From an uncultured archaeon (GTDB lineage Archaea; Altiarchaeota; Altiarchaeia; IMC4; QMZM01), in NCBI GenBank assembly GCA_964592095.1, contig CAZQER010000002.1, positions 1-41,173 of the forward strand: 41,173 nt of DNA. Reading direction: 5' to 3'. Shown piece by piece: positions 9,766 through 41,173 of the stretch. Positions within the stretch are counted from its first letter, which is position 1; each line of letters begins with the position of its first letter. A program made the translations under genes and the position numbers. The notes under the pieces are model-generated. The model saw nothing but the letters and a program-made list of their open reading frames with translations, was not told the DNA's origin and did not search any database.

Positions 9766-9839
9766 GCCTCCGTAGCTTAGTTCGGTATAGCGGCGGACTT
9801 GTAATCCGCAGGTCGAGGGTTCAAATCCCTCCGGAGGCT
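9766..9839 (+). tRNA. tRNA-Thr (anticodon UGU)
   Basis: Manual cloverleaf: acceptor GCCTCCG/CGGAGGC, anticodon arm GCGGA-CTTGTAA-TCCGC, T arm GAGGG-TTCAAAT-CCCTC, discriminator T. There is no encoded CCA and no intron. It forms a GC-rich island in AT-rich DNA. Confidence 0.9.
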
Positions 9840-12125: not shown

Positions 12126-12785
12126 ATGAAAAAACTTTTTATACCGGCATATTCCTTAAAGAGTCCAGAAAGGGCTGTAAAAAGGGCATTAAGGCTTCTA
12201 AAAGGTTATAAAACTATAGGTATCATTACCACTGCCCAACATATAAATCAGATATCTATGGTAAAAAGAATTCTTGAGAGAGAAGGGCACAATGTTATTG
12301 AGGGTGGGCAGATACTTGGTTGTAATATAGAATCTGCCAAAAAAATTGAAAATAGTGTGGATGTATTTCTATATATCGGCTCCGGGAGATTTCATCCCTT
12401 GGGTGTTGCATATGCAACAAGAAAGCCAGTAATTACGGCAAACCCCCTCTCTGATTTTGCAGATACAATATCAAAGGAGGAGATACTACAGTTAAAAAGG
12501 AAAAGAAGGGCTAGAATCCTCAGGGCATATAATGCCAATGTTTTTGGAATACTTGTCTCACTAAAGAATGGACAATTTAACTTAGAGAGAGCATTTCAGA
12601 TTAAGGATAGAATGGAAAGAGCAGGTAGGAGAGCATTTATCTTTGCTGGCTCTGAAATAAACAATGATAATATACTTCCATTTAGAGTAGAGGCTTGGGT
12701 TAATACCGCGTGTCCAAGGATAGTGGATGATTACTTTGATAAACCTGTTTTGAATGAAGGAGAGATTGATATACTGATAGAGTAA
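12126..12785 (+). CDS. dph2: Dph2 (2-(3-amino-3-carboxypropyl)histidine synthase) lacking the N-terminal domain
   Basis: The 219 aa align by eye to domains 2 and 3 of archaeal Dph2. Matching segments are IGIITTAQHINQ, GQILGCN, YIGSGRFHPLG, FGILVSLKNGQ and WVNTACPRIVDDY. There is no room upstream for domain 1, because the acyP stop lies 2 nt before the ATG. Confidence 0.75.
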   Translation: MKKLFIPAYSLKSPERAVKRALRLLKGYKTIGIITTAQHINQISMVKRILEREGHNVIEGGQILGCNIESAKKIENSVDVFLYIGSGRFHPLGVAYATRKPVITANPLSDFADTISKEEILQLKRKRRARILRAYNANVFGILVSLKNGQFNLERAFQIKDRMERAGRRAFIFAGSEINNDNILPFRVEAWVNTACPRIVDDYFDKPVLNEGEIDILIE

Positions 12786-12809
12786 AATTTTATAATTATT
12801 TGTGATCTA

Positions 12810-13583
12810 TCACTTGAATAGATTTAACATTTCTTCCTCTGTAAAGTGGAGATTTGCAGGTATGATTATGGAGTGTGGCGGCCCACCAAAATTAAAATCT
12901 ATTAAATCATTTAGAGTTCCAGTCTTTATCGTGGTATCATTTCCTAGTCTTGCAACGCCAACAATAAGTGTTTCATTATCAATAACATTTTCCCTTTTTA
13001 TTTTTTCCATTTTCAAAAGAATTTCAATACCTTCATTGATTGTCATAAATCTCTTTTCTTCATATTTTATATCTAAAAGAATTAATGTATGCATTCCTCC
13101 TCTCAGATTTTCCTTTATCACATTATATGGAGATGTTGGAAAATATTTCTTTTCTGGAAATGGTAGGGTGGTTGTTTTGCCAAACTTGTATATGTGCAAA
13201 CCGGTTTCAGCAATGGCAGAATACACAGATGATGAGTGTATTACCTTGACCTTTATACCCATTTTATTTGCTCTCAATAGAATATCTGCGTGGGTGGTTG
13301 CAATTAGAGGGTCGCCACAAACAAGTAATGCGACATCTTTTTTTGAAGAATTATAAAGGATATTATCATCCGGATGCCCCTCTAAATCCTCCCTGTCTAA
13401 AATGTTAATCCTTTTTCCAACCCAGTTTTCAATAGTCTTCAAATCACCATTAAAAAAACTTGTATATAATTCGGCATAAATTCTATCAACCCTCTTTAGT
13501 ATCTCAACACCCTTAATACTAATATCCCCTTCATCATAAATGCCCAACCCAATGAGATATAACATATTAATAATTAGAAACAC
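12810..13583 (-). CDS. dphB: diphthine synthase
   Basis: 257 aa. The tetrapyrrole-methylase-fold N-terminus MLYLIGLGIYDEGDISIKG, plus LVCGDPLIATTH and the overall length, are typical of archaeal diphthine synthase. It is convergent with dph2. Confidence 0.9.
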   Translation of the reverse strand: MFLIINMLYLIGLGIYDEGDISIKGVEILKRVDRIYAELYTSFFNGDLKTIENWVGKRINILDREDLEGHPDDNILYNSSKKDVALLVCGDPLIATTHADILLRANKMGIKVKVIHSSSVYSAIAETGLHIYKFGKTTTLPFPEKKYFPTSPYNVIKENLRGGMHTLILLDIKYEEKRFMTINEGIEILLKMEKIKRENVIDNETLIVGVARLGNDTTIKTGTLNDLIDFNFGGPPHSIIIPANLHFTEEEMLNLFK

Positions 13584-13641: not shown

Positions 13642-16600
13642 TTAGGCGTGTATATTCTCTTTCAACCACTGTATTAATGCATCTCCTGCCTCTTTTGTAT
13701 CTGAGGCTAAATAACCTGCAACCATAATCTTGTTTCCATCCCTTCTGACAATGAACTTGTCTGGTGCCGCCTCTAACTCCTCTTTTGTTACAGTACACAT
13801 TCCATTCACTGCAGGACCTCCCACTATTATCAGATTCTTGGTTTCATCGGCACCTATCTCAGAGACTACTAAATTGCCCACTGGATTAACTGTAACCTTT
13901 GTGTATGTTACTTCTCCACCTTCACCTGCCTCCATGGTAAAGTTGCTTACCTTGAACTCACAGCACCCTGCAGTTATTGTCTTACCGACATCAGCATCTG
14001 TTATCTCATCGTATGTTACCTTTTCTTTCTCCTCTGTACCGATGAAGTATGTAGCATCTACTGCCTTCTGTGGGTGACATACCTCCACAGATGTAATCTT
14101 TCTGTCTGTACCCCAGTCTATTGTGTATGTATCGCCTCCTTCTGGCACGATCAGAACACTATCATCCTCATCATTCATAACCATTATCTCATCTGTTTTA
14201 TAATACGAGCCCTCCTTTAACATACAACCATCGAATGTTACATCAGTACAATTCCATGTGTTCGTCACATTGTTAAATGAACAGTAGGTTTCATTTACCT
14301 CACAAACTGTTGTGTAAACACCAATTGAATGTCCATAGTCTTGTTCATCACCTGGTGTTTCATCCTCTGGTTGATCTCTGTCTGACATATCTATCACTAC
14401 CGTTTCGCCATCCTCATTCTTTGTGACTATTAGTAAATCGTCATTATCATTATCATTGTTCATATTCACACCATTACCTGAAGTTGCGGCAGTACCACAA
14501 CTCTTCAGAGCATACTGACTGAGGTCAAGTTCCCTTACTGTCCACAGAGAGAATTTACTTCCCTCGTTTTCAAAATCATCAAGTGGGTGTTCTGATGACT
14601 CTATTGTGGAACGAGGTGTGGCTATATCTGGGTCAACAAGCAATAGAATCTGTGACTGTACACCACGAGTATTCCATGGGTCTTTTTTACTTAGTATTAT
14701 TGAATCATCATCATCGTTAAATAGCATTATCATATTCACACCATTAACTGTCACATTAGCCCAGTATATGTCCTCTGCGGAAACTGTAATGTTTTCATCG
14801 TTAGAGAAACCATCACAGTTATTATCAAATGCATCCGAAAGTGCTACTGTTCTCAGTGTTATTTCATCTATATCCTCACAACTACAACTCTGCAGGTTTC
14901 CGTCGTCTAGATTGGGATCACACCTCGTAAAATTACCTGTTGAGCCTCCTGTCATATTACACATATGATACAATGTAATTGTCTTCTTTGATCCAGACCC
15001 CACTGGTTTTAACTTTACCTCCACACTATCATCATTTTTATCTGTTGTTCCCCCGTCATCCTTCGTTGAACCAAGATACTGATACATCTTGCCTCCAATC
15101 AGGAAGGCATCTTCATCACCACTCTCTGTGAATGGTCCGTTATCAAGTCTCAAATCATATCTGTTGTGTTTATCATTCGTCATACTTACTACAACCTGAT
15201 AAGGCTCTTCTCCCTCTGATATCACTATGTTTCCTTCACCCGCTCCAGAGCATTCAGCCTCTCTGAATGAGGATGTCATATATCCCTTGAATATCAACTT
15301 GAATTCTCCAGGTAGATTGAATTCATCTCCAACCCTCAATGCATGGAATATAGGATCACTCTGACTCTCATCTACATTCTTTACTAAGGTTACCGTTATA
15401 TTTGCAAGTACTAGGTCGTTAGTGTCATCTAAATTACTGTATTGGGTAATATCCTTTGCACAGTCACTGTCACTTTTACAATGAGCAGTATTAACATTTA
15501 CCTTCCAGCCTTCCCATGTGTTTCCACCTATGCTCAACTCCTCTCCATCTTCAAGAACCACTTGATTGCTGATATCATATACTATGATGGATGCTGTTTC
15601 AACACCACCGGATGATTCCGCATATACACCAGAAATCTCCAAATCATCTACCACTGCATTTGCCATCTTTGATATCTGTCTCTGCACCTCAGTACCATCT
15701 GGTTTCTGTATTGTCAGCAATATACCTGCTACAACATACTCTCCTGAATATATTAGGTGGTCAATCTTGAATTTGTATCCCTTGTACTCTGATGTGTATC
15801 CCTCACTTGTTATATCATCTAACCTGGTACCTTCAGCGAGGATTATCTTATCTTCACCCTCTATGTCCTTCACATAGTACTCCTTCCCAAAGAAGAGCAA
15901 CTTTCCTCTGTACTCAAAATCAACCCAATGATCACTGTCGCCTCCTCCACTTGTTAGTCTCTCCATTGGTATCCAGCCAGCCTCAAGTATATACTTTATA
16001 GCATTCTTCTTTATAGCCATCTCTAAGTACTCTGGGTCACGCTTACCAATACCGCTCTCATAGTACCATATATTGTCGTTGTTCACATAGAGTTTCTCCT
16101 CCATATCGTGGGATGGGTTCTCTAAGGCTTCCAAACACAGGTTATGACAGAACAGGCAGTGGATGTTATTGGATGTAAGGGTCTGCAGAATCGTTGCCTC
16201 GGCAAGTTGCTCCTTCTCGCATGTTATTGAATACTGTGTAAATCCGCCAGATTCATAGGTTTCTTCACCATCAAATTTGTAGTTACCTTCGGCACCACTC
16301 TGGCTATAGAAATCCTCTGATATTTTAACATCCTTAGTATCCTGCACATATTCACCGACAGCTCCTAATGCTGATGTCTCTATCAGTACCTTTCCTGTTG
16401 CAGCGGCACCTGCTCCACCCGCTGTTGCTGTCTCTTCCATGTACGCCAAATTACCTATGGTTGCAGCAATATTACCTGCAGTTACAAAATCGTCTGGTCC
16501 TCCGGCGTTTGCCTTTTCCCCAACCACTATCTGAACCTTTGGTACATAATTTGCATCATAGAAAAACCCCTTCTCAATTCCCGTGGTGTCCATTCCTGCA

Positions 16601-16695
16601 AGCACTGGTGTCGCAAGTGTTGCACCTATCATGGTAGCCCCAATTGCAACAGTACCTATCTTCTTAATATCTATGGATTTCAATTTCCTTATCAC
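13642..16695 (-). CDS. S-layer-like major surface protein, Cys-rich
   Basis: The signal peptide ...KKIGTVAIGATMIGATLATPVLAG and the C-terminal NLIIVGGPAVN...IMVAGYLASDTKEAGDALIQWL resemble Methanococcales/Thermococcales-type S-layer proteins. The protein is acidic with many N-x-S/T sequons and about 21 Cys. The listed GTG start sits inside the SD (GAGGTGAT). TTG at 16683-16681 (MKSIDIKKIG...) is the more plausible start. Confidence 0.7.
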   Translation of the reverse strand: MIRKLKSIDIKKIGTVAIGATMIGATLATPVLAGMDTTGIEKGFFYDANYVPKVQIVVGEKANAGGPDDFVTAGNIAATIGNLAYMEETATAGGAGAAATGKVLIETSALGAVGEYVQDTKDVKISEDFYSQSGAEGNYKFDGEETYESGGFTQYSITCEKEQLAEATILQTLTSNNIHCLFCHNLCLEALENPSHDMEEKLYVNNDNIWYYESGIGKRDPEYLEMAIKKNAIKYILEAGWIPMERLTSGGGDSDHWVDFEYRGKLLFFGKEYYVKDIEGEDKIILAEGTRLDDITSEGYTSEYKGYKFKIDHLIYSGEYVVAGILLTIQKPDGTEVQRQISKMANAVVDDLEISGVYAESSGGVETASIIVYDISNQVVLEDGEELSIGGNTWEGWKVNVNTAHCKSDSDCAKDITQYSNLDDTNDLVLANITVTLVKNVDESQSDPIFHALRVGDEFNLPGEFKLIFKGYMTSSFREAECSGAGEGNIVISEGEEPYQVVVSMTNDKHNRYDLRLDNGPFTESGDEDAFLIGGKMYQYLGSTKDDGGTTDKNDDSVEVKLKPVGSGSKKTITLYHMCNMTGGSTGNFTRCDPNLDDGNLQSCSCEDIDEITLRTVALSDAFDNNCDGFSNDENITVSAEDIYWANVTVNGVNMIMLFNDDDDSIILSKKDPWNTRGVQSQILLLVDPDIATPRSTIESSEHPLDDFENEGSKFSLWTVRELDLSQYALKSCGTAATSGNGVNMNNDNDNDDLLIVTKNEDGETVVIDMSDRDQPEDETPGDEQDYGHSIGVYTTVCEVNETYCSFNNVTNTWNCTDVTFDGCMLKEGSYYKTDEIMVMNDEDDSVLIVPEGGDTYTIDWGTDRKITSVEVCHPQKAVDATYFIGTEEKEKVTYDEITDADVGKTITAGCCEFKVSNFTMEAGEGGEVTYTKVTVNPVGNLVVSEIGADETKNLIIVGGPAVNGMCTVTKEELEAAPDKFIVRRDGNKIMVAGYLASDTKEAGDALIQWLKENIHA

Positions 16696-17930: not shown

Positions 17931-19025
17931 TTATTCTACTTTAAATCTCAAAATTGCTGCCTTTCCACCGAATGTATTCCATAATTGAAATCCTTCCTCA
18001 AAGTCATCAGAAACTATATCTACCTCTGTATTTGTATCCTTAGCCTTCTGATAGAGTTTGTCTATCGTTTCATCATCAAGATTTTCAGATATCAATAATA
18101 TATCAACTGCACCCATATCCAATGCCTTATCAACATCATCACCATATGCAACACTCTCCTGAGATGAGACGAGACCCTTAAGAAATCTCTGCATATGTGT
18201 TTTGTGTCTTACCATCTGCACATTACTTAAAACATCCTTTGATTTATCTATCAATTCCCTGATGCCAGATTCATCTGTGTATGTAATATCCTGAACTGCA
18301 ATAATCTTCTTTTTCAACTCATGATTAAGATAATTACCCTCAACAAAATCATCCTTTGTCCCTGCAGGTCCTCCTATTATTATACCCTTTAAATCCTTGA
18401 AATTTTCCAGAAATATTTTATTAGAATGTTCACCCACTCTAACCTTAAATTCATGGGATTGCTCTCTAATCAATCTCTCAAATCTTCTATGAGACTGACC
18501 TCCAGCCCTATGCTTTCCAGTATATCCTGATGTAAGGTGTTTTAGTATAGTGTATCTGTTACCCTTCAATGTAGCAATTGTAGCCTCTTTATTATCTATT
18601 GCTATTAAACCATATACATCCTTTGGTTTTATTATCTCCTCCAATGGCTCTATTACAAACTCTTGGTCACATCTGTAGATTCTCACAGATATGGGTTCAG
18701 GGGGTTCAATTGACCATAATCTCAAATCCTGAACTCCTTCCTTCTCAGAAACATTTCCACAAAAAACAACGAGACCATTATCGGGTGTTTTTTTGAAAAG
18801 CCTTAAATGTTGTATTGTCTTCTCCAATGCATCTAATACATTCTTTCTTGTGGACTTGGATTTGATATTAGCTGCAGTTCCCTGTTCATCTACAAGTTGA
18901 TTAAGAACGTTGTTTATGTCATAACCTGCAGGTATATATATAGATATAAGCTCCGTGTGTCTTCCCTTTCTCCTCTTTAATTCATTTACAAGTCTCCTCA
19001 ACCTGTATTCATCCTTTGCTTCCAT
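17931..19025 (-). CDS. prf1: peptide chain release factor aRF1
   Basis: It has the NIKS codon-recognition motif (AANIKSKS) and the GGQ motif (HRAGGQSHRRFERL). The N-terminal YRLRRLVNEL...ELISIYIP is typical of aRF1. At 364 aa it is somewhat short for the family. Confidence 0.9.
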   Translation of the reverse strand: MEAKDEYRLRRLVNELKRRKGRHTELISIYIPAGYDINNVLNQLVDEQGTAANIKSKSTRKNVLDALEKTIQHLRLFKKTPDNGLVVFCGNVSEKEGVQDLRLWSIEPPEPISVRIYRCDQEFVIEPLEEIIKPKDVYGLIAIDNKEATIATLKGNRYTILKHLTSGYTGKHRAGGQSHRRFERLIREQSHEFKVRVGEHSNKIFLENFKDLKGIIIGGPAGTKDDFVEGNYLNHELKKKIIAVQDITYTDESGIRELIDKSKDVLSNVQMVRHKTHMQRFLKGLVSSQESVAYGDDVDKALDMGAVDILLISENLDDETIDKLYQKAKDTNTEVDIVSDDFEEGFQLWNTFGGKAAILRFKVE

Positions 19026-19860
19026 ATTTTATTTTTATAAATATTCTATCCAGATTAAACTCAAATGCAGTAATGGGTACTTCTAATCCAAAATTTTCTA
19101 TTACTATTGGATTTATTTCTCCAAAAAAACCAAAGCCTGTTCCAGCACACCTACCATCAATAAAGCTCCCATGTTCTAATTCTTTTATTTTATATTTTAC
19201 CCCGATATTATCAAGAAATCCAGTAACTATAGATTTTATTTCTGCATAGTTTGTTTTTGAATGAGCAATAGCAGCAGCTAATTTCATACTTTCATTTCCA
19301 TTTTGGTCTATGCAAAGTCCAGTCTCGAATATTCTTTGCGGATACTCCCTGTTCTTGTTATTTTCAAATACTGACATAAGAGATGGTAATAACCATGACC
19401 TTGCAACCGAATGTCTCAGAGATACTGGATTCTTTGTCTTTACCACATTCTCTCTTGATATATTCATTCTATCAAAAAGTTCATCCTCATTGGTCATAAT
19501 CAGGGTCATCACCTCCTGAAAATTAAAGCCAAGCATTAACTCCCTTACAGCTGAGTAAAATTTCTCAGATTTATCTTTTTCACCTATTGTGGACAGTTCT
19601 GGTATTTCTGGATTGAAATTATTATAGTTGTAAGCTATAGCCACATCCTCAACCAGATCTATGGGATGTAAGATGTCTGTTCTGTAGGCTGGGATTAAAA
19701 TCTCAAATTTATTATTATTTAATATTTTAACACCGAAACGCATCTTCTCCAATAATTTTTTGATATCTTTTAGTCCCAAATTTAAACCCAAGAGTTTATT
19801 TACATACCTTAAATCCAATTTCATCAATTTTGGTGAAAGATTGGGAGTTGTTGTTTCCAT
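19009..19860 (-). CDS. pheT: phenylalanyl-tRNA synthetase beta subunit, C-terminal half (B5 plus catalytic-like core)
   Basis: The 283 aa start at the B5 domain (LDLRYVNKLLGLNLGLKDIKKLLEKMRFG...ILIPAYRTDILHPIDLVEDVAIAYNYNNF). They continue through the class-II-like core to the normal C-terminus (EINPIVIENFGLEVPITAFEFNL). The B1-B3/4 region is absent here and is encoded at 34728-35522. Confidence 0.85.
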   Translation of the reverse strand: METTTPNLSPKLMKLDLRYVNKLLGLNLGLKDIKKLLEKMRFGVKILNNNKFEILIPAYRTDILHPIDLVEDVAIAYNYNNFNPEIPELSTIGEKDKSEKFYSAVRELMLGFNFQEVMTLIMTNEDELFDRMNISRENVVKTKNPVSLRHSVARSWLLPSLMSVFENNKNREYPQRIFETGLCIDQNGNESMKLAAAIAHSKTNYAEIKSIVTGFLDNIGVKYKIKELEHGSFIDGRCAGTGFGFFGEINPIVIENFGLEVPITAFEFNLDRIFIKIKYGSKG

Positions 19861-20805: not shown

Positions 20806-20878
20806 TGGGGCCGCCGAGATTTGAACTCGGGTTACCAGCGCCCCGGGCTGGAAGGATGCCAAGCTACCCTACGGCCCC
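20806..20878 (-). tRNA. tRNA-Pro (anticodon GGG)
   Basis: The reverse complement folds as acceptor GGGGCCG/CGGCCCC, anticodon arm CCAGC-CCGGGGC-GCTGG, T arm CCGAG-TTCAAAT-CTCGG and discriminator A. There is no encoded CCA. Position 33 appears to be C rather than U. Confidence 0.8.
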
Positions 20879-24700: not shown

Positions 24701-25147
24701 TCATACCTTTCTGGTTATATTCACATCCAAACCTTTTCTTGGGTCTACAGATTCAAAAACAAGAATATAATTACCTTCATGACACTCATCAGAACATATA
24801 CTTCCAGTTAAATTTCCTTTTGTTACGGCATATATATCTGTATATGAACTTCCTTTTGTTGAACCTATTGCCAATCTGAATAGTATTGTTTTCCCGGTAA
24901 TTGTTGTTTTTACTACATTATTCGGAATAAATATGCTTTTCTGTATTTTTGATGGATGACCGGTTACATAGATGAAATCTGCAGCCTCCCTTATACTCTC
25001 TACCGCAGTAGAAGCAGAACTTACACTAACCTGTATTGTGGATGTGTTGATCATGTTATTAACAACCAAAAGCACCGCAACAAGTACCACTAAGGAGATA
25101 CCAAGCATAATCATATACTCCAATGAAACCTGTGCCTTTTCCTTCAT
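24701..25147 (-). CDS. archaeal type IV pilin-like protein (class III signal peptide, DUF361-type)
   Basis: MKEKA/QVSLEYMIMLGISLVVLVAVLLVV has a short basic leader, Q at +1, E at +5 and a hydrophobic helix. It is a paralog of 39485-39928. Shared segments include DFIYVTGHPSK/DFVYVHGYPSK, SYTDIYAVTKGNLT/SYTDIYGVTRGNLT and GNYILVFE/GDYILVIE. Confidence 0.65.
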   Translation of the reverse strand: MKEKAQVSLEYMIMLGISLVVLVAVLLVVNNMINTSTIQVSVSSASTAVESIREAADFIYVTGHPSKIQKSIFIPNNVVKTTITGKTILFRLAIGSTKGSSYTDIYAVTKGNLTGSICSDECHEGNYILVFESVDPRKGLDVNITRKV

Positions 25148-34727: not shown

Positions 34728-35522
34728 TTATCTTTTAAGCAGTTTTATGCTTTGTATTTCACCTCCTCTGTCAGCTATGGAAGTAACAATGATGTTCAAT
34801 GCCTGATTAACTGCAACATTATCAAGACCAGTCACATCTATGAAGATATCCTCTGTGTCCTCACCTACTCTGGTAAGTTCTCCATTTATTATTGGTGGAA
34901 ATGACAAAACCCTGTTGTATTTATCAACTATTATTGGATATCTTTTCAATCCTGATAGAGTCCATTTATATTGAATTCCCTTTGGATGTCTCTCAAGAAT
35001 CTCTCTTAGATTTAATTCCTCTTTCATATCCAGTGGAACAAATCTTATATCATCTGGTTTTATGGCTTTGTATGTGAACGGTCCTTCTATTTTTTTCATA
35101 TCATGTATGCCTATAGCAACCTTCTTCCTGTTTCTTCCATGAGTAATATGAAGCTTTTCTTGAAGATTCATTAACGAAACCAATCTTTTTTCATTTAGTG
35201 AAAGATTTCTAATTACGGCACCAACTATATAAGGTCTAACATTATTGACAGATTCTTCTATGAGAATTTTAATTCCAGAATCAGTAATATTATATTCCTT
35301 GAATCCAGTCTCAATCTCAAGAAAGCCTTTCAATGCCCTTACAAATCCCTCCACTGAAAGCAGGTCTGGTCTGTTTGGGAATACCTCCATAACCAATCTC
35401 TCATTATCAATATCCTCTAAATCCACACCAAGCATTGATATCTTTTCTTCTATGTCATCTATTTTGTATTTATTTCCCAACAAATGATTAATCTCTCTAA
35501 GATCAAACTCAACCGTAGGCAT
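34728..35522 (-). CDS. pheT: phenylalanyl-tRNA synthetase beta subunit, N-terminal half (B1 plus B3/4 editing region) as a stand-alone gene
   Basis: MPTVEFDLREINHLLG...EVFPNRPDLLSVEGFVRALKGFLEIETG is the typical archaeal PheT N-terminus. The B3/4-like region is VRPYIVGAVIRN...KVAIGIHD...LSFPPIINGELT...IFIDVTG...ADRGGEI. A stop follows residue 264, where B5 would begin. The gene starts 16 nt after the radA stop. Confidence 0.85.
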   Translation of the reverse strand: MPTVEFDLREINHLLGNKYKIDDIEEKISMLGVDLEDIDNERLVMEVFPNRPDLLSVEGFVRALKGFLEIETGFKEYNITDSGIKILIEESVNNVRPYIVGAVIRNLSLNEKRLVSLMNLQEKLHITHGRNRKKVAIGIHDMKKIEGPFTYKAIKPDDIRFVPLDMKEELNLREILERHPKGIQYKWTLSGLKRYPIIVDKYNRVLSFPPIINGELTRVGEDTEDIFIDVTGLDNVAVNQALNIIVTSIADRGGEIQSIKLLKR

Positions 35523-38580: not shown

Positions 38581-39483
38581 TTAAGGATAGATTATATAGA
38601 GTGTTGTGTTTGGTGAATTATCTAATTTTATTTTACTTCCATCAGCATTAATCCAATACCATTTTTCAGTCATGGCATCTACTGTTATTCTCATATAGAT
38701 GCAGGATGGGTTAAATTCCAATGCTCCTCCAGATGGACCGGATGTCCATGTCCAATGACCCATAGAAGGTGTTAGAGTACCTGAAATTGTGAAAATGGTT
38801 TTTGATGGTTTGTGTCCATCATAATGAAAATCTATATTTACGGTCCCACCACCATCCCCCGGCATACCATGTCTGAATACAAGGCTTATTGTTCCAGTAT
38901 CCTCATTGAGGTAGAGATACATTATTGAGTCTTCAGATTCCTCGGTAACATTTGGAAATGTGGTTTTTGGCATTTTCCCTCTAAAGGGTATAATCCTCCA
39001 TTCATTTTTTCCTTGTTTTAGATTATAATTTAGATTATCTTGAAGGCATACAGAATTCAAAATATTGCTAATCCTGATATTTGTAATATTTTCTATGAGA
39101 ATATTTGTGGTATTACCTTTGTATTTACACCTCTTCATAGTACAACCAATTCTCTGAGTGAATATTGGAGCAAACCAGTTAATTTTCCCACTTTTAATAA
39201 ATATAGATGGTTCGTCATTATGGAAATATATCTCATATTTTCCACCTCCATATATATCCTTCGGTAATATAATTTGATGTGAATGTCCACTGCCTACCAT
39301 TAAAATATCATTCATGTTTTCAGCTAAGCCGCTTATAATACGCTTTGCTACAATTTCCTTTTTGATATCTGTGATTATTACAAGTTTATGATAAAAAAGA
39401 TAACCAATTACTATTGATATTACTAAAATGATTGATAATGTTACCAGAAACTCTATACTTACCTGTGATTTTAAATCCTTCAT
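38581..39483 (-). CDS. pilin-like protein (class III signal peptide) with a ~260-aa C-terminal domain
   Basis: MKDLKS/QVSIEFLVTLSIILVISIVIGYLF has Q at +1 and E at +5. The start lies 1 nt after the stop of the upstream pilin gene, suggesting an operon. The C-terminal domain is unrecognised. Confidence 0.6.
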   Translation of the reverse strand: MKDLKSQVSIEFLVTLSIILVISIVIGYLFYHKLVIITDIKKEIVAKRIISGLAENMNDILMVGSGHSHQIILPKDIYGGGKYEIYFHNDEPSIFIKSGKINWFAPIFTQRIGCTMKRCKYKGNTTNILIENITNIRISNILNSVCLQDNLNYNLKQGKNEWRIIPFRGKMPKTTFPNVTEESEDSIMYLYLNEDTGTISLVFRHGMPGDGGGTVNIDFHYDGHKPSKTIFTISGTLTPSMGHWTWTSGPSGGALEFNPSCIYMRITVDAMTEKWYWINADGSKIKLDNSPNTTLYIIYP

Positions 39484-39484
39484 T

Positions 39485-39928
39485 TTATTTTACAGTAATC
39501 CTGATTCTATTATTTTTTATATGTTCAATCACCAAAATATAATCCCCAGGCCTACAATCTGGATTACATATTGCGTGTAGATTTGATGTTAGATTACCTC
39601 TTGTTACACCATAGATATCAGTATATGACTCACCAAAATGTGATGCTATAGAAAGCCTCATTCTTATTATATTCCCGTTCATATCAATTCTCTCTATATT
39701 ACCAGGTATAGTGATTCGTGCTTCTGTTTTAGACGGGTATCCATGCACATATACAAAATCGGATTTGTCTTTAATTATATCCACGGTTTTGTAGGCAGAA
39801 TCAATATTCATTTGAGTTGTTGATTCTATCATATATGACATTAGAGAATACAATATTACTGATAATAACAAAATTGCAAAGCTCACCAGTGCCAGGTATT
39901 CCAACATCGCCTGAGCATTATTTTTCAT
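39485..39928 (-). CDS. archaeal type IV pilin-like protein (class III signal peptide, DUF361-type)
   Basis: MKNNA/QAMLEYLALVSFAILLLSVILYSL. It is a paralog of 24701-25147 (see that feature). Confidence 0.65.
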   Translation of the reverse strand: MKNNAQAMLEYLALVSFAILLLSVILYSLMSYMIESTTQMNIDSAYKTVDIIKDKSDFVYVHGYPSKTEARITIPGNIERIDMNGNIIRMRLSIASHFGESYTDIYGVTRGNLTSNLHAICNPDCRPGDYILVIEHIKNNRIRITVK

Positions 39929-40028: not shown

Positions 40029-40556
40029 CTACACTGCAATTATCTTTATTTTCTTTCCAATTACTGGAACGAGCCTCTTGAGTTCTACTTCACTATTCTC
40101 TTTGATTATATATTCATTTATTGGTATATTCACAAGTTTGCCGTTCACTTCATAGATATAATATCCATCCCTTCCATCTACCGAATTTATATAAAAACCC
40201 TTATCTGACTCCTCGAACTCAATACCTGAGATATTGCTAAGTGCATCCTTAATTGTTGTTCCCTTTGGTACCTTGATAACAAAAGATTCCTCCAGATTCC
40301 AGAAATCTCCAAGTTTTCTTATATTCTCGATGTTTGCTTTTATAATATGTGACCTTCCCACCCTGATTCTCTCAACTAGACCAACACCCTCAAGAATTCT
40401 TATGTGTCTCAGAGCAACTGGAACTGATACACTTACCTTTTTGGCAATTGCAGATATGTGCATTTCCCTGTTTAATACTATCCTAAGCATTTCCCTCCTC
40501 TTCCTATTCCCAAGTGCTTTGAAAACATCATACATCTTGATATTAATTATTATCAA
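40029..40556 (-). CDS. ArsR-family wHTH regulator fused to a C-terminal DUF4430-like domain
   Basis: VFKALGNRKRREMLRIVL...MHISAIAKKVSVSVPVALRHIRILEGVGLVE is a classic ArsR/SmtB HTH. The C-terminal GTTIKDALSNISGIEFEESDKGFYINSVDGRDGYYIYEVNGKLVNIPINEYIIKENSEVEL resembles DUF4430. The likely true start is ATG at 40535 (MYDVFKALG), not the TTG at 40556. Confidence 0.65.
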   Translation of the reverse strand: MIIINIKMYDVFKALGNRKRREMLRIVLNREMHISAIAKKVSVSVPVALRHIRILEGVGLVERIRVGRSHIIKANIENIRKLGDFWNLEESFVIKVPKGTTIKDALSNISGIEFEESDKGFYINSVDGRDGYYIYEVNGKLVNIPINEYIIKENSEVELKRLVPVIGKKIKIIAV

Positions 40557-40585
40557 TTTTGATATTAATTATTATCAATTTTGAT
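40537..40585. promoter_or_regulatory. tandemly duplicated 22-bp palindromic operator candidate
   Basis: TTGATATTAATTATTATCAATT occurs at 40537-40558 and again at 40559-40580, then TTGAT at 40581-85. Each unit contains the inverted repeat TTGATA-N8-TATCAA. It lies between the divergent starts at 40535 (minus) and 40625 (plus). Confidence 0.6.
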
Positions 40586-40624
40586 TAGTTTTTAAATAAT
40601 TGATTTTATAATTAAAAATGTAAA

Positions 40625-41173
40625 ATGAAAAGGATTTTTATTCTCGCCTTTACACTTTTGTTGATTTGTAATGTGTGGGGGATAAAGGTTGGTGTAGTGG
40701 TTGAGTTTCCAGATGGAAAGTTGTGGTATAGATGCCTCAATGTGGAGGAAAATGAAGATGGTTACAGGCTTATGGAAAAGACTGGATTAAATCTGGAATG
40801 GAGTTACTACAATACTCTTGGTCATGCCCTGTGTAAGATAGAGAATACTGGATGTCCAGCATCTAATTGTTTTTGTAATGACAAATACTGGAATTTTTAC
40901 ACTGCAGGTATAGGTGATAGGGAATGGAGATATTCATCGGTTGGTTTTGATGGTGGCTCCTCATGCAATGAGCATTATTGTGCAAAGTATGGTGATTTGC
41001 TGGGATTTGCATATGGTGGATTTGGAACAAAACCTAAATTCTTTGAATTTAGAGATGTCTGTAGGAGTAATAAAAGGAGAAAGAATGAATTTAATGTTAT
41101 TTTTAATAATTCTGCATCGATTAATGAAATAATAAACATCAATGTATCTGATAAGAGAGATGGAAAAGGGATA
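40625..41173 (+). CDS. secreted Cys-rich protein with a DUF4430-like N-terminal region (partial, runs off the right edge)
   Basis: This ORF is not in the supplied track because no stop falls inside the window. I translated ATG at 40625 in frame to 41173 without a stop. The product reads MKRIFILAFTLLLICNVWG (signal peptide) IKVGVVVEFPDGKLWYRCLNV...GHALCKIENTGCPASNCFCNDKYWNFYTAG...EWRYSSVGFDGGSSCNEHYCAKYGDLLGFAYGG... Confidence 0.6.
   Translation, partial: MKRIFILAFTLLLICNVWGIKVGVVVEFPDGKLWYRCLNVEENEDGYRLMEKTGLNLEWSYYNTLGHALCKIENTGCPASNCFCNDKYWNFYTAGIGDREWRYSSVGFDGGSSCNEHYCAKYGDLLGFAYGGFGTKPKFFEFRDVCRSNKRRKNEFNVIFNNSASINEIININVSDKRDGKGI

Follow-up and report, generated by a model that had tools for sequence, protein, structure and literature searches.

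The closest described relatives of the gene pair analyzed here, which occupies positions 40029–41173 of a 41,173-nucleotide stretch from an uncultured member of the Altiarchaeota (contig CAZQER010000002.1, from its position 1; this whole stretch is the window), belong to the SLBB superfamily as defined by Burroughs, Balaji, Iyer and Aravind (Burroughs et al., 2007; Biol Direct 2:4; PMC1796856). In that account the transcobalamin-like clade has a beta-grasp core with a beta-hairpin inserted after the helix, and in transcobalamin it is this hairpin that contacts vitamin B12. Secreted members are described as fused to toroid, beta-propeller and immunoglobulin-like (Ig) domains; a second paralog in the operon and CbiO/CbiQ-like neighbors are frequent. 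The same account includes intracellular fusions of an ArsR-type winged helix-turn-helix (wHTH) to an SLBB domain, with an example from Methanosarcina, and predicts that these are one-component sensors of B12, of its precursors or of an unknown soluble ligand. The window encodes an archaeal protein of the same architecture and proposed role, transcribed divergently from the gene for a Cys-rich surface protein. The passages on the ArsR-SLBB factors give no operator, regulon or experiment and report no divergent pairing with secreted SLBB genes, whereas the window regulator has for its partner a Cys-rich form of the fold that escapes current DUF4430 models.

A preliminary description, made from the DNA letters alone, had put the pair forward as an undescribed system with no described function. 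The features themselves were confirmed, each at the position given. As the ArsR-SLBB architecture and the B12 hypothesis already appear in the 2007 account, that claim falls, while its interpretation was largely right on the fold and the logic and is to that extent partly supported. What does appear to be previously undescribed is the conserved pairing, the operator that recurs across phyla and the Cys-rich SLBB-like family.

Both window proteins have in common with the ligand-contacting beta-domains of transcobalamin, intrinsic factor (PDB 2PMV) and haptocorrin (4KKI), and with bacterial RUMGNA_00854 (3U7Z), a beta-grasp fold with a hairpin after the helix. They differ from these transcobalamin-type proteins in the two Cys-rich loop inserts of the surface protein, and in the regulator's copy, which is located in the cytoplasm and joined to a DNA-binding domain. 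The prokaryotic secreted systems that combine toroid + DUF4430 proteins with energy-coupling factor (ECF) transporters, as outlined by Burroughs et al. (2007) and in L. sakei, resemble the window locus in having secreted or anchored binders as tandem paralogs. In relatives of the window locus the regulator is surrounded by genes for a toroid + DUF4430 protein, for a small DUF4430 protein and for an ECF S-component-like protein, whereas the window lineage has the Cys-rich variant only and no adjacent ECF or ATP-binding cassette (ABC) genes.

ArsR/SmtB metalloregulators such as CzrA, SmtB, CadC and NolR have the DNA-binding fold and the palindromic operator logic in common with the window regulator, but the latter lacks their alpha3N and alpha5 ligand residues, has no Cys and carries an extra C-terminal putative ligand-binding domain. 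Other transcription factors are known to bind B12: CarH/LitR and AerR join a MerR-type or other helix-turn-helix domain to a B12-binding domain of the Rossmann type and serve in the sensing of light. They likewise couple cobalamin to transcription through a protein, but they have no SLBB fold and no homology to the regulator described here.

We consider it likely that the locus encodes a one-component tetrapyrrole sensor, most likely for a corrinoid, which controls itself and a two-gene operon of surface binders; the regulator and surface proteins are probably a sense-and-capture unit for a corrinoid-like cofactor. The regulator would bind DNA as an ArsR-type dimeric winged-helix protein and would sense through its cytoplasmic SLBB/DUF4430 copy, not through a metal site. 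It would occupy two palindromes spaced 22 bp apart in the divergent spacer, and would thereby occlude its own promoter and start site (autorepression) while also lying directly ahead of the TATA element from which the divergent operon would be transcribed. A cytoplasmic ligand bound to the SLBB domain may then change the affinity for DNA and switch the operon in one direction or the other. The operon products, two paralogous membrane-anchored surface proteins of 315 and 198 amino acids (aa) whose ectodomains are Cys-rich variants of the same fold, would capture this ligand, or a related one, on the outside of the cell. The ligand class is best stated as a tetrapyrrole cofactor because of a heme link in L. 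sakei (see below), with a corrinoid (a cobamide or a precursor) placed first because of the cbi, cobalt and metE context of the homologs.

The regulator and the divergent surface-protein operon

The regulator gene lies on the minus strand at 40029–40535, within an open reading frame (ORF) of 40029–40556 and with its stop codon at 40029–40031. The ATG at 40535 was taken as the real start because 20/20 homologs begin M-x-D-[IL]-F-K-A-L and because public gene calls agree; these calls place the exact 168-aa protein on 8 public contigs. The fusion of an ArsR-type wHTH to a DUF4430 domain, as first proposed for this strand, was borne out by two Pfam matches above their gathering cut-offs. HTH_5 (PF01022) matched residues 12–55 (40371–40502; 28.8 bits against 22) within a wHTH domain of residues 1–82 (40290–40535), and DUF4430 (PF14478) matched residues 92–153 (30.2 bits against 23.8) within a putative SLBB/DUF4430 sensor domain of residues 85–168 (40032–40283). 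The best NCBIfam match was the ArsR/SmtB model HTH_metalloreg (NF033788; E = 1.5e-12, 47.1 bits, below its 55-bit cut-off). No signal peptide could be read from the regulator sequence.

An AlphaFold2 (AF2) model of the regulator had a mean predicted local distance difference test (pLDDT) score of 82.6. Foldseek matched its wHTH to NolR, CzrA, SmtB, HlyU and others (E about 1e-4, root-mean-square deviation mostly 1.3–4.7 Å over about 78 residues), and a PDB profile search with the regulator agreed with these ArsR/SmtB matches. The protein contains no Cys and, in the sequence and the family alignment, no His/Asp/Glu cluster in the helix of residues 69–82, so that the canonical metal sites of ArsR proteins are absent. 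A metal-sensor reading of the ArsR domain was rejected, as the ligand residues of both alpha3N (Cys) and alpha5 (Asp/His/His/Glu) are missing. With no such site the protein is not a classical ArsR metal sensor, and sensing must therefore come from the SLBB domain.

In the model this domain comprises a strand, a helix (95–100), a hairpin of strands 105–110 and 113–119, and then three core strands. Aligned by hhalign with secreted DUF4430 domains it gave a probability of 95.5% (E = 1.4e-8). The modeled fold fits the transcobalamin-like SLBB clade in the terms of Burroughs et al. (2007), and the domain order of a cytoplasmic protein, with an ArsR wHTH first and a transcobalamin-like SLBB domain behind it, places the regulator in their ArsR + SLBB class. 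It could be argued that the domain serves instead for oligomerization or partner binding, the protein being an autorepressor that is constitutive or controlled by another protein. Protein-protein contacts are a frequent task of beta-grasp domains, the near-invariant C-terminal tail ELKRLVPVIGKKI, which is the most conserved part of the domain across the regulator family, could be an interface, and the predicted TM-score (pTM) of 0.45 leaves the arrangement of the two domains undefined. We regard this as very improbable, since the domain passes the DUF4430 gathering score, it retains the clade-specific hairpin that contacts B12 in transcobalamin, and the repeated association of the family with secreted copies of the domain and with cofactor-pathway genes (see below) is what would be expected of a ligand sensor.

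Across a spacer of 89 bp the divergent gene, P0001, starts at 40625 on the plus strand. As the preliminary description had it, this gene encodes a signal peptide and runs off the end of the window, which interrupts it at 41173 after the first 183 of its 315 codons. The contig L002 is identical to window positions 40029–41173 (1145/1145 bp) and was used to extend the locus. The complete P0001 protein begins with a signal peptide, continues with the Cys-rich beta-grasp domain and a beta-sandwich, and ends in a Thr-rich stalk that leads to a transmembrane anchor at the C-terminus. The signal peptide (residues 1–19, MKRIFILAFTLLLICNVWG; 40625–40681) was judged by eye to be of the Sec type, contains a helix at residues 2–13 in the model, and is followed in homologs by AxA-type cleavage sites at the same position. 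The beta-sandwich gave weak Pfam matches only, and the homolog P0018 carries PF13620 there. In L002, the 198-aa paralog P0003, with a short stalk and an anchor, starts 7 bp downstream of P0001 and is followed by purD, which overlaps the end of P0003, and by carA.

The Cys-rich domain (residues 20–146; 40682–41062) has eight conserved Cys and the inserts GCPASNCFC and SCNEHYC. It was modeled with AF2 from 18 sequences, and pLDDT exceeded 90 over residues 20–140, with a helix at 46–51 followed by strands 57–62 and 66–72. The four best Foldseek matches, each with probability 1.00, were 4KKI (E = 7.7e-4), two chains of 3U7Z (2e-3; TM-score 0.76 normalized to the target) and 2PMV (2.3e-3), at sequence identities of 12–16%. 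In the models of both window proteins the domain thus has a strand-helix core followed by a beta-hairpin, which is the hallmark of the transcobalamin-like SLBB clade. These models support the view that the Cys-rich domain shares the DUF4430/SLBB fold and constitutes a divergent, uncatalogued family. Of the suggestion that the two proteins share one domain, a DUF4430-like fold with Cys-rich inserts was therefore recovered, and the further suggestion of a common pattern at the sequence level was not (see below).

An exhaustive hidden Markov model (HMM) search placed at least 1,666 clusters at 50% identity in the Cys-rich family at E ≤ 1e-3, and 674 at E ≤ 1e-10. Most are from DPANN and Altiarchaeota; those that carry a name are entered as "hypothetical proteins" and come from Altiarchaeales, Aenigmatarchaeota and Woesearchaeota and from one Caldilineaceae bacterium. 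In 86 members examined with Pfam the domain was fused to CarboxypepD_reg, CARDB/Ig, beta-propeller and toroid domains, the same accessory domains that accompany canonical secreted DUF4430. The locus thereby brings to light, in DPANN and Altiarchaeota, a large family of Cys-rich surface domains that carries no annotation.

Along about 190 bp the tandem genes P0001 and P0003 (L002 2193–3744) are about 98% identical (176/180), against 50–70% in the flanks, which suggests gene conversion. A related strain (L001, 2147–2734) has a single 195-aa chimeric gene, its 5′ part from the first paralog and its 3′ part from the second; this is the product to be expected of a recombinational deletion across the shared stretch. 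A purine link was also considered, as purD follows the Cys-rich genes in 3 Altiarchaeota-type loci and L011 lies among pur genes. It was discarded as lineage synteny, as there was 1 pur gene across the 80 regulator loci described below.

The operator in the divergent spacer

The spacer contains two identical copies of the 20-mer TTGATATTAATTATTATCAA (TTGATA-N8-TATCAA), one proximal to the regulator at 40537–40556 and the other at 40559–40578. They are the sole two matches in the window. Both are full palindromes, spaced 22 bp start to start (two helical turns), and the pair spans 42 bp. Copy 1 ends 1 bp from the regulator ATG. About 10 bp separate the end of copy 2 from the TATA-like TTTTTAAATA (40588–40597, plus strand), a candidate archaeal TATA box for the surface-protein operon read from the sequence, about 30 bp before the ATG at 40625. 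Such an arrangement implies autorepression. A sigma-70 promoter scan was set aside as not applicable to an archaeon.

Alignment of upstream DNA from regulator genes across phyla revealed a composite operator, made up of a 16-bp palindrome GATAAT-N4-ATTATC, 6 bp, and a GATAAT/GGTAAT half-site, again at a spacing of 22 bp start to start. The palindrome usually starts 16–60 bp before the regulator ATG, and in the window this core is found in copy 1, on the minus strand at 40539–40554. Upstream regions were scored within 150 bp of the regulator for a palindrome of at least 9/12 together with a half-site of at least 5/6 at +22. On this basis the composite operator was present in 19/79 regulator upstream regions, against about 0.08 expected from a background of 0.001 per 160 bp in the remainder of these loci. 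At 10/12 or better, the palindrome by itself was present in 21/79 against about 1 expected. These operators come from Altiarchaeota, Iainarchaeota, a Nanoarchaeota-labeled metagenome-assembled genome (MAG), ANME-1 and Thermoplasmatota-type loci, with slightly weaker copies in Hydrothermarchaeota.

The best composite score in the window (11/12 + 6/6) belongs to the copy 1/copy 2 pair. Further candidate sites within the window were dismissed: these were weak 10/12 matches, as expected in AT-rich DNA, and an 11/12 palindrome match at 39024 that falls within a coding region and lacks a half-site. In a shuffle test of the AT-rich window, 19 of 100 shuffles yielded at least two palindrome matches, so the count is unremarkable by itself. 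The significance of the operator rests on its conservation across phyla and not on its count within the window. That conservation supports the palindrome being a genuine operator, which had been proposed from the duplicated repeat, and the regulator would be the protein that binds it.

Control by a riboswitch or another RNA was rejected, as Rfam detected no riboswitch in the window, nor in any of 15 related loci that were scanned as well (among them 9 with cobalt or corrin-pathway genes and the MetE-associated locus L029), and the RNA scan of the window gave a tRNA only.

Gene neighborhoods of the regulator family and the ligand

GTDB species-representative genomes were scanned for relatives of the regulator. 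In 244 stretches tblastn confirmed that a relative is encoded, and 80 loci were kept, from Altiarchaeota, Iainarchaeota, Nanoarchaeota, Hydrothermarchaeota, ANME-1, Methanosarcinales, Archaeoglobi, Bathyarchaeia, Halobacteriota and Thermoplasmatota MAGs. Their gene context was drawn from public gene calls and from ORF/phmmer mapping, and was checked with Pfam and NCBIfam.

The regulator family is conserved in divergent pairing with secreted DUF4430-type proteins across many archaeal lineages, which supports the preliminary description. A divergent secreted protein matching toroid/DUF4430-type seeds was found in 18/80 loci, several of which also have a small DUF4430 protein, an ECF S-component-like gene, or both, nearby. 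In 6–7/80 loci the divergent partner is a secreted beta-propeller protein, with a toroid gene behind it in three. Divergent members of the Cys-rich family occur in 2/80 loci (L027 and L030) and, outside the 80, in the window lineage, L007 and L017. Among the 40 divergent neighbors of at least 150 aa, Pfam assigned a toroid to 16 and DUF4430 to 12. ECF S-component-like genes adjoin the regulator locus in relatives only (L007, L019, L026 and L089).

In the Iainarchaeota-type loci the toroid + DUF4430 gene is always followed by a conserved 160–190-aa membrane-anchored protein with Cys motifs and no Pfam match (for example L009 3769–4281 and L011 2922–3413, and in six or seven of L019–L031). It is probably a third component of the operon in these loci. 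Beside the small DUF4430 genes of L019 (5011–5652) and L026 (4970–5503), and convergent with the regulator, are membrane proteins that score just below the DUF6580 cut-off and resemble the ECF S-component that L007 has beside its regulator. These membrane proteins are candidates for the transport of the captured ligand.

Cobalt or corrin genes were present near the regulator in 9/80 loci. The regulator is divergent from cbiM-cbiN-cbiQ in L079, and from cobA (SUMT, above the NCBIfam cut-off) and a btuC-like permease in L067 and L088. It adjoins cbiC in L083, is the first gene before cbiT, cbiL and cbiF in L074, and follows ECF transporter genes (CbiM- and CbiQ-like matches with an ATPase) in L032 and a NicO-like transporter, with cbiC nearby, in L035. 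Matches to cbiM/cbiQ (L042) and FecCD (L061) lie 2–3 kb from the regulator. MetE-like genes were found in 1/80 loci (L029), where the regulator faces a 231-aa membrane protein and two genes of the cobalamin-independent methionine synthase family. The regulators of L029 and L027 are paralogs from one Altiarchaeia MAG, MFD12011, the latter paired with a Cys-rich surface protein, and both have the conserved operator. With this cbi, cobalt-transport, cobA and metE-like context, a corrinoid, which the preliminary description had named among possible ligands, is a sensible candidate.

It is conceivable, though we think it rather unlikely, that the same architecture and logic serve a ligand other than a corrinoid, such as heme, another tetrapyrrole (for example a precursor of F430 or of siroheme) or a soluble metabolite of an unrelated kind. 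This would fit the one comparable bacterial case, the L. sakei ECF system Lsa1836–1840, whose secreted transcobalamin alpha- and beta-like proteins are implicated in the uptake of heme and not of B12 (bioRxiv 10.1101/864751). It would also fit the BtuC match, which falls below its NCBIfam cut-off, and an association with an ADP-ribosylglycohydrolase gene that shows no evident corrinoid link (see below). A corrinoid is favored by the neighboring cbiC, cbiT, cbiL, cbiF and cbiMNQ, which are specific to the cobalt-corrin branch, by the MetE-like genes beside a regulator paralog, which fit a classical B12 regulon, and by the presence of cobalamin in 4KKI and 2PMV, the sole solved ligand complexes among the fold matches. 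Should the ligand not be a corrinoid, the module would still define a regulon.

Several observations weigh against a corrinoid sense-and-capture unit, the heme link of L. sakei among them. At the level of sequence, PF14478, which matched the regulator, did not recognize the Cys-rich domain and was absent from the 25 Pfam families listed for 86 members of the Cys-rich family, none of which covers the Cys-rich domain itself. P0001 gave no match in Pfam or NCBIfam at E ≤ 10 for the fragment in the window and none in Pfam at E ≤ 1 at full length, and a PDB sequence-profile search with the family gave none at E ≤ 10. Direct hhalign comparison of the Cys-rich and regulator family alignments gave a probability of 0.1%, that is, no similarity. 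Against an alignment of genuine secreted DUF4430 domains from related loci the result was weak (pairwise E = 0.0019, probability 14%, 74 collinear columns), although this alignment is essentially the one drawn in the preliminary description, with the motifs GCPxSNCxC and SCxEHYC falling in loops. Since profile similarity is weak or nil, the argument that the Cys-rich domain may bind the same ligand as the regulator draws on fold and context.

Further points on this side come from the loci themselves. No transporter gene adjoins the surface-protein operon in L002, where the preliminary description had envisaged one and where the paralog, purD and carA follow instead. By Pfam neither P0001 nor P0003 contains an alpha/alpha toroid domain, so that the lineage lacks the toroid partner of transcobalamin-type proteins. 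The Cys-rich genes of L015 and L016 have no regulator nearby, and no operator was found upstream of them. About 16/80 regulator loci have no informative neighbor, and about 28/80 have the ADP-ribosylglycohydrolase gene upstream and in the same direction, with no evident corrinoid link. Burroughs et al. (2007) also observe that SLBB-encoding archaea are often B12 producers in their own right and that the molecule they scavenge may be a different one. Within the library searched, our literature search returned no experimental study of an archaeal B12 regulator or of DUF4430 function beyond that paper and the L. sakei preprint.

Some of these observations would also suit a role as surface or adhesion proteins, in which the Cys-rich domains are disulfide- or metal-stabilized on a beta-grasp scaffold, do not bind the ligand of the regulator, and are encoded in a surface operon that the regulator simply controls. 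The lack of a Pfam match and of profile similarity to the regulator domain, and the Cys-rich genes that stand apart from any regulator, point that way. So do the motifs CxxxxCxC and CxxHxC with their invariant His, which could form a metal site, and the Foldseek matches beyond the first four, which are generic ubiquitin/UBX beta-grasp folds. We judge this improbable, because those first four matches are specifically B12-carrier/DUF4430 domains, because the Cys-rich domain occupies the same divergent genomic slot as the canonical DUF4430 proteins and shares their accessory domains, and because its alignment to DUF4430 is collinear across the whole domain with the Cys motifs in loops.

The ADP-ribosylglycohydrolase loci are from ANME-1, Methanosarcinales and Halobacteriota and fall among L034–L097, with the regulator directly downstream (for example L045 2962–3909, Pfam 251 bits). 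A phosphoglycerate-mutase-like gene is often divergent to the pair.

Methanogenesis, the Wood-Ljungdahl pathway and methionine synthesis make archaea heavy users of cobamides, and DPANN and Altiarchaeota are thought to depend on scavenged cofactors. To our knowledge, cobalamin riboswitches are essentially a bacterial device. In bacteria they control genes for cobalt transport, cbi biosynthesis, btuC-like permeases, metE-like enzymes and surface binders. The same gene classes adjoin the regulator family, with the difference that the sensor here would be a protein acting at the level of DNA, not an RNA. The 80 loci span roughly ten major archaeal lineages. A broader reading, which we offer tentatively and hold to be possible but not the expected outcome, is that the family is to archaea, as a protein, what the B12 riboswitch is to bacteria: one widespread corrinoid-sensing repressor with one conserved operator, accompanied by a new class of extracellular corrinoid binders in the Cys-rich family. 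If so, one repressor would control surface capture, cobalt/corrinoid transport, cbi biosynthesis and metE-like genes, and the Cys-rich binders would be used by cofactor-scavenging archaea. The window locus is a compact and testable candidate for B12 sensing in archaea, with a protein of 168 aa, an operator pair of 42 bp, a predicted ligand class and homologs in cultivable relatives (Methanosarcina).

Other genes in the window

Downstream of the regulator, at 38581–39928 on the minus strand, two ORFs of 147 and 300 aa start with the motifs KNNAQAMLEYLALV and KSQVSIEFLVTL. These resemble the class III (type IV pilin-like) signal peptides of archaea, although Pfam gave no match at E ≤ 0.01; a separate ORF at 24701–25147 does match Class_IIIsignal. 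A TP_methylase match at 12810–13583 was considered as a corrin methylase and rejected, since the gene is the diphthine synthase Dph5 (303 bits). It is convergent with a Dph2-like diphthamide synthesis gene, which covers profile positions 66–292 only, within 12126–13583.

ARAGORN and Rfam both found a tRNA-Thr at 9766–9839. A tRNA-Pro(GGG) at 20806–20878 on the minus strand was called by ARAGORN and was not reported by the Rfam tRNA model at its gathering score. The domains of the phenylalanyl-tRNA synthetase beta subunit are split between two minus-strand genes 15 kb apart, a 283-aa ORF at 19009–19860 with B5 and catalytic-like domains and a 264-aa ORF at 34728–35522 with B1 and B3_4 domains. 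At 13642–16695 on the minus strand, a 1017-aa protein matches S_layer_C (50.6 bits) and is a candidate subunit of the S-layer or of a surface appendage of this Altiarchaeota-like organism.

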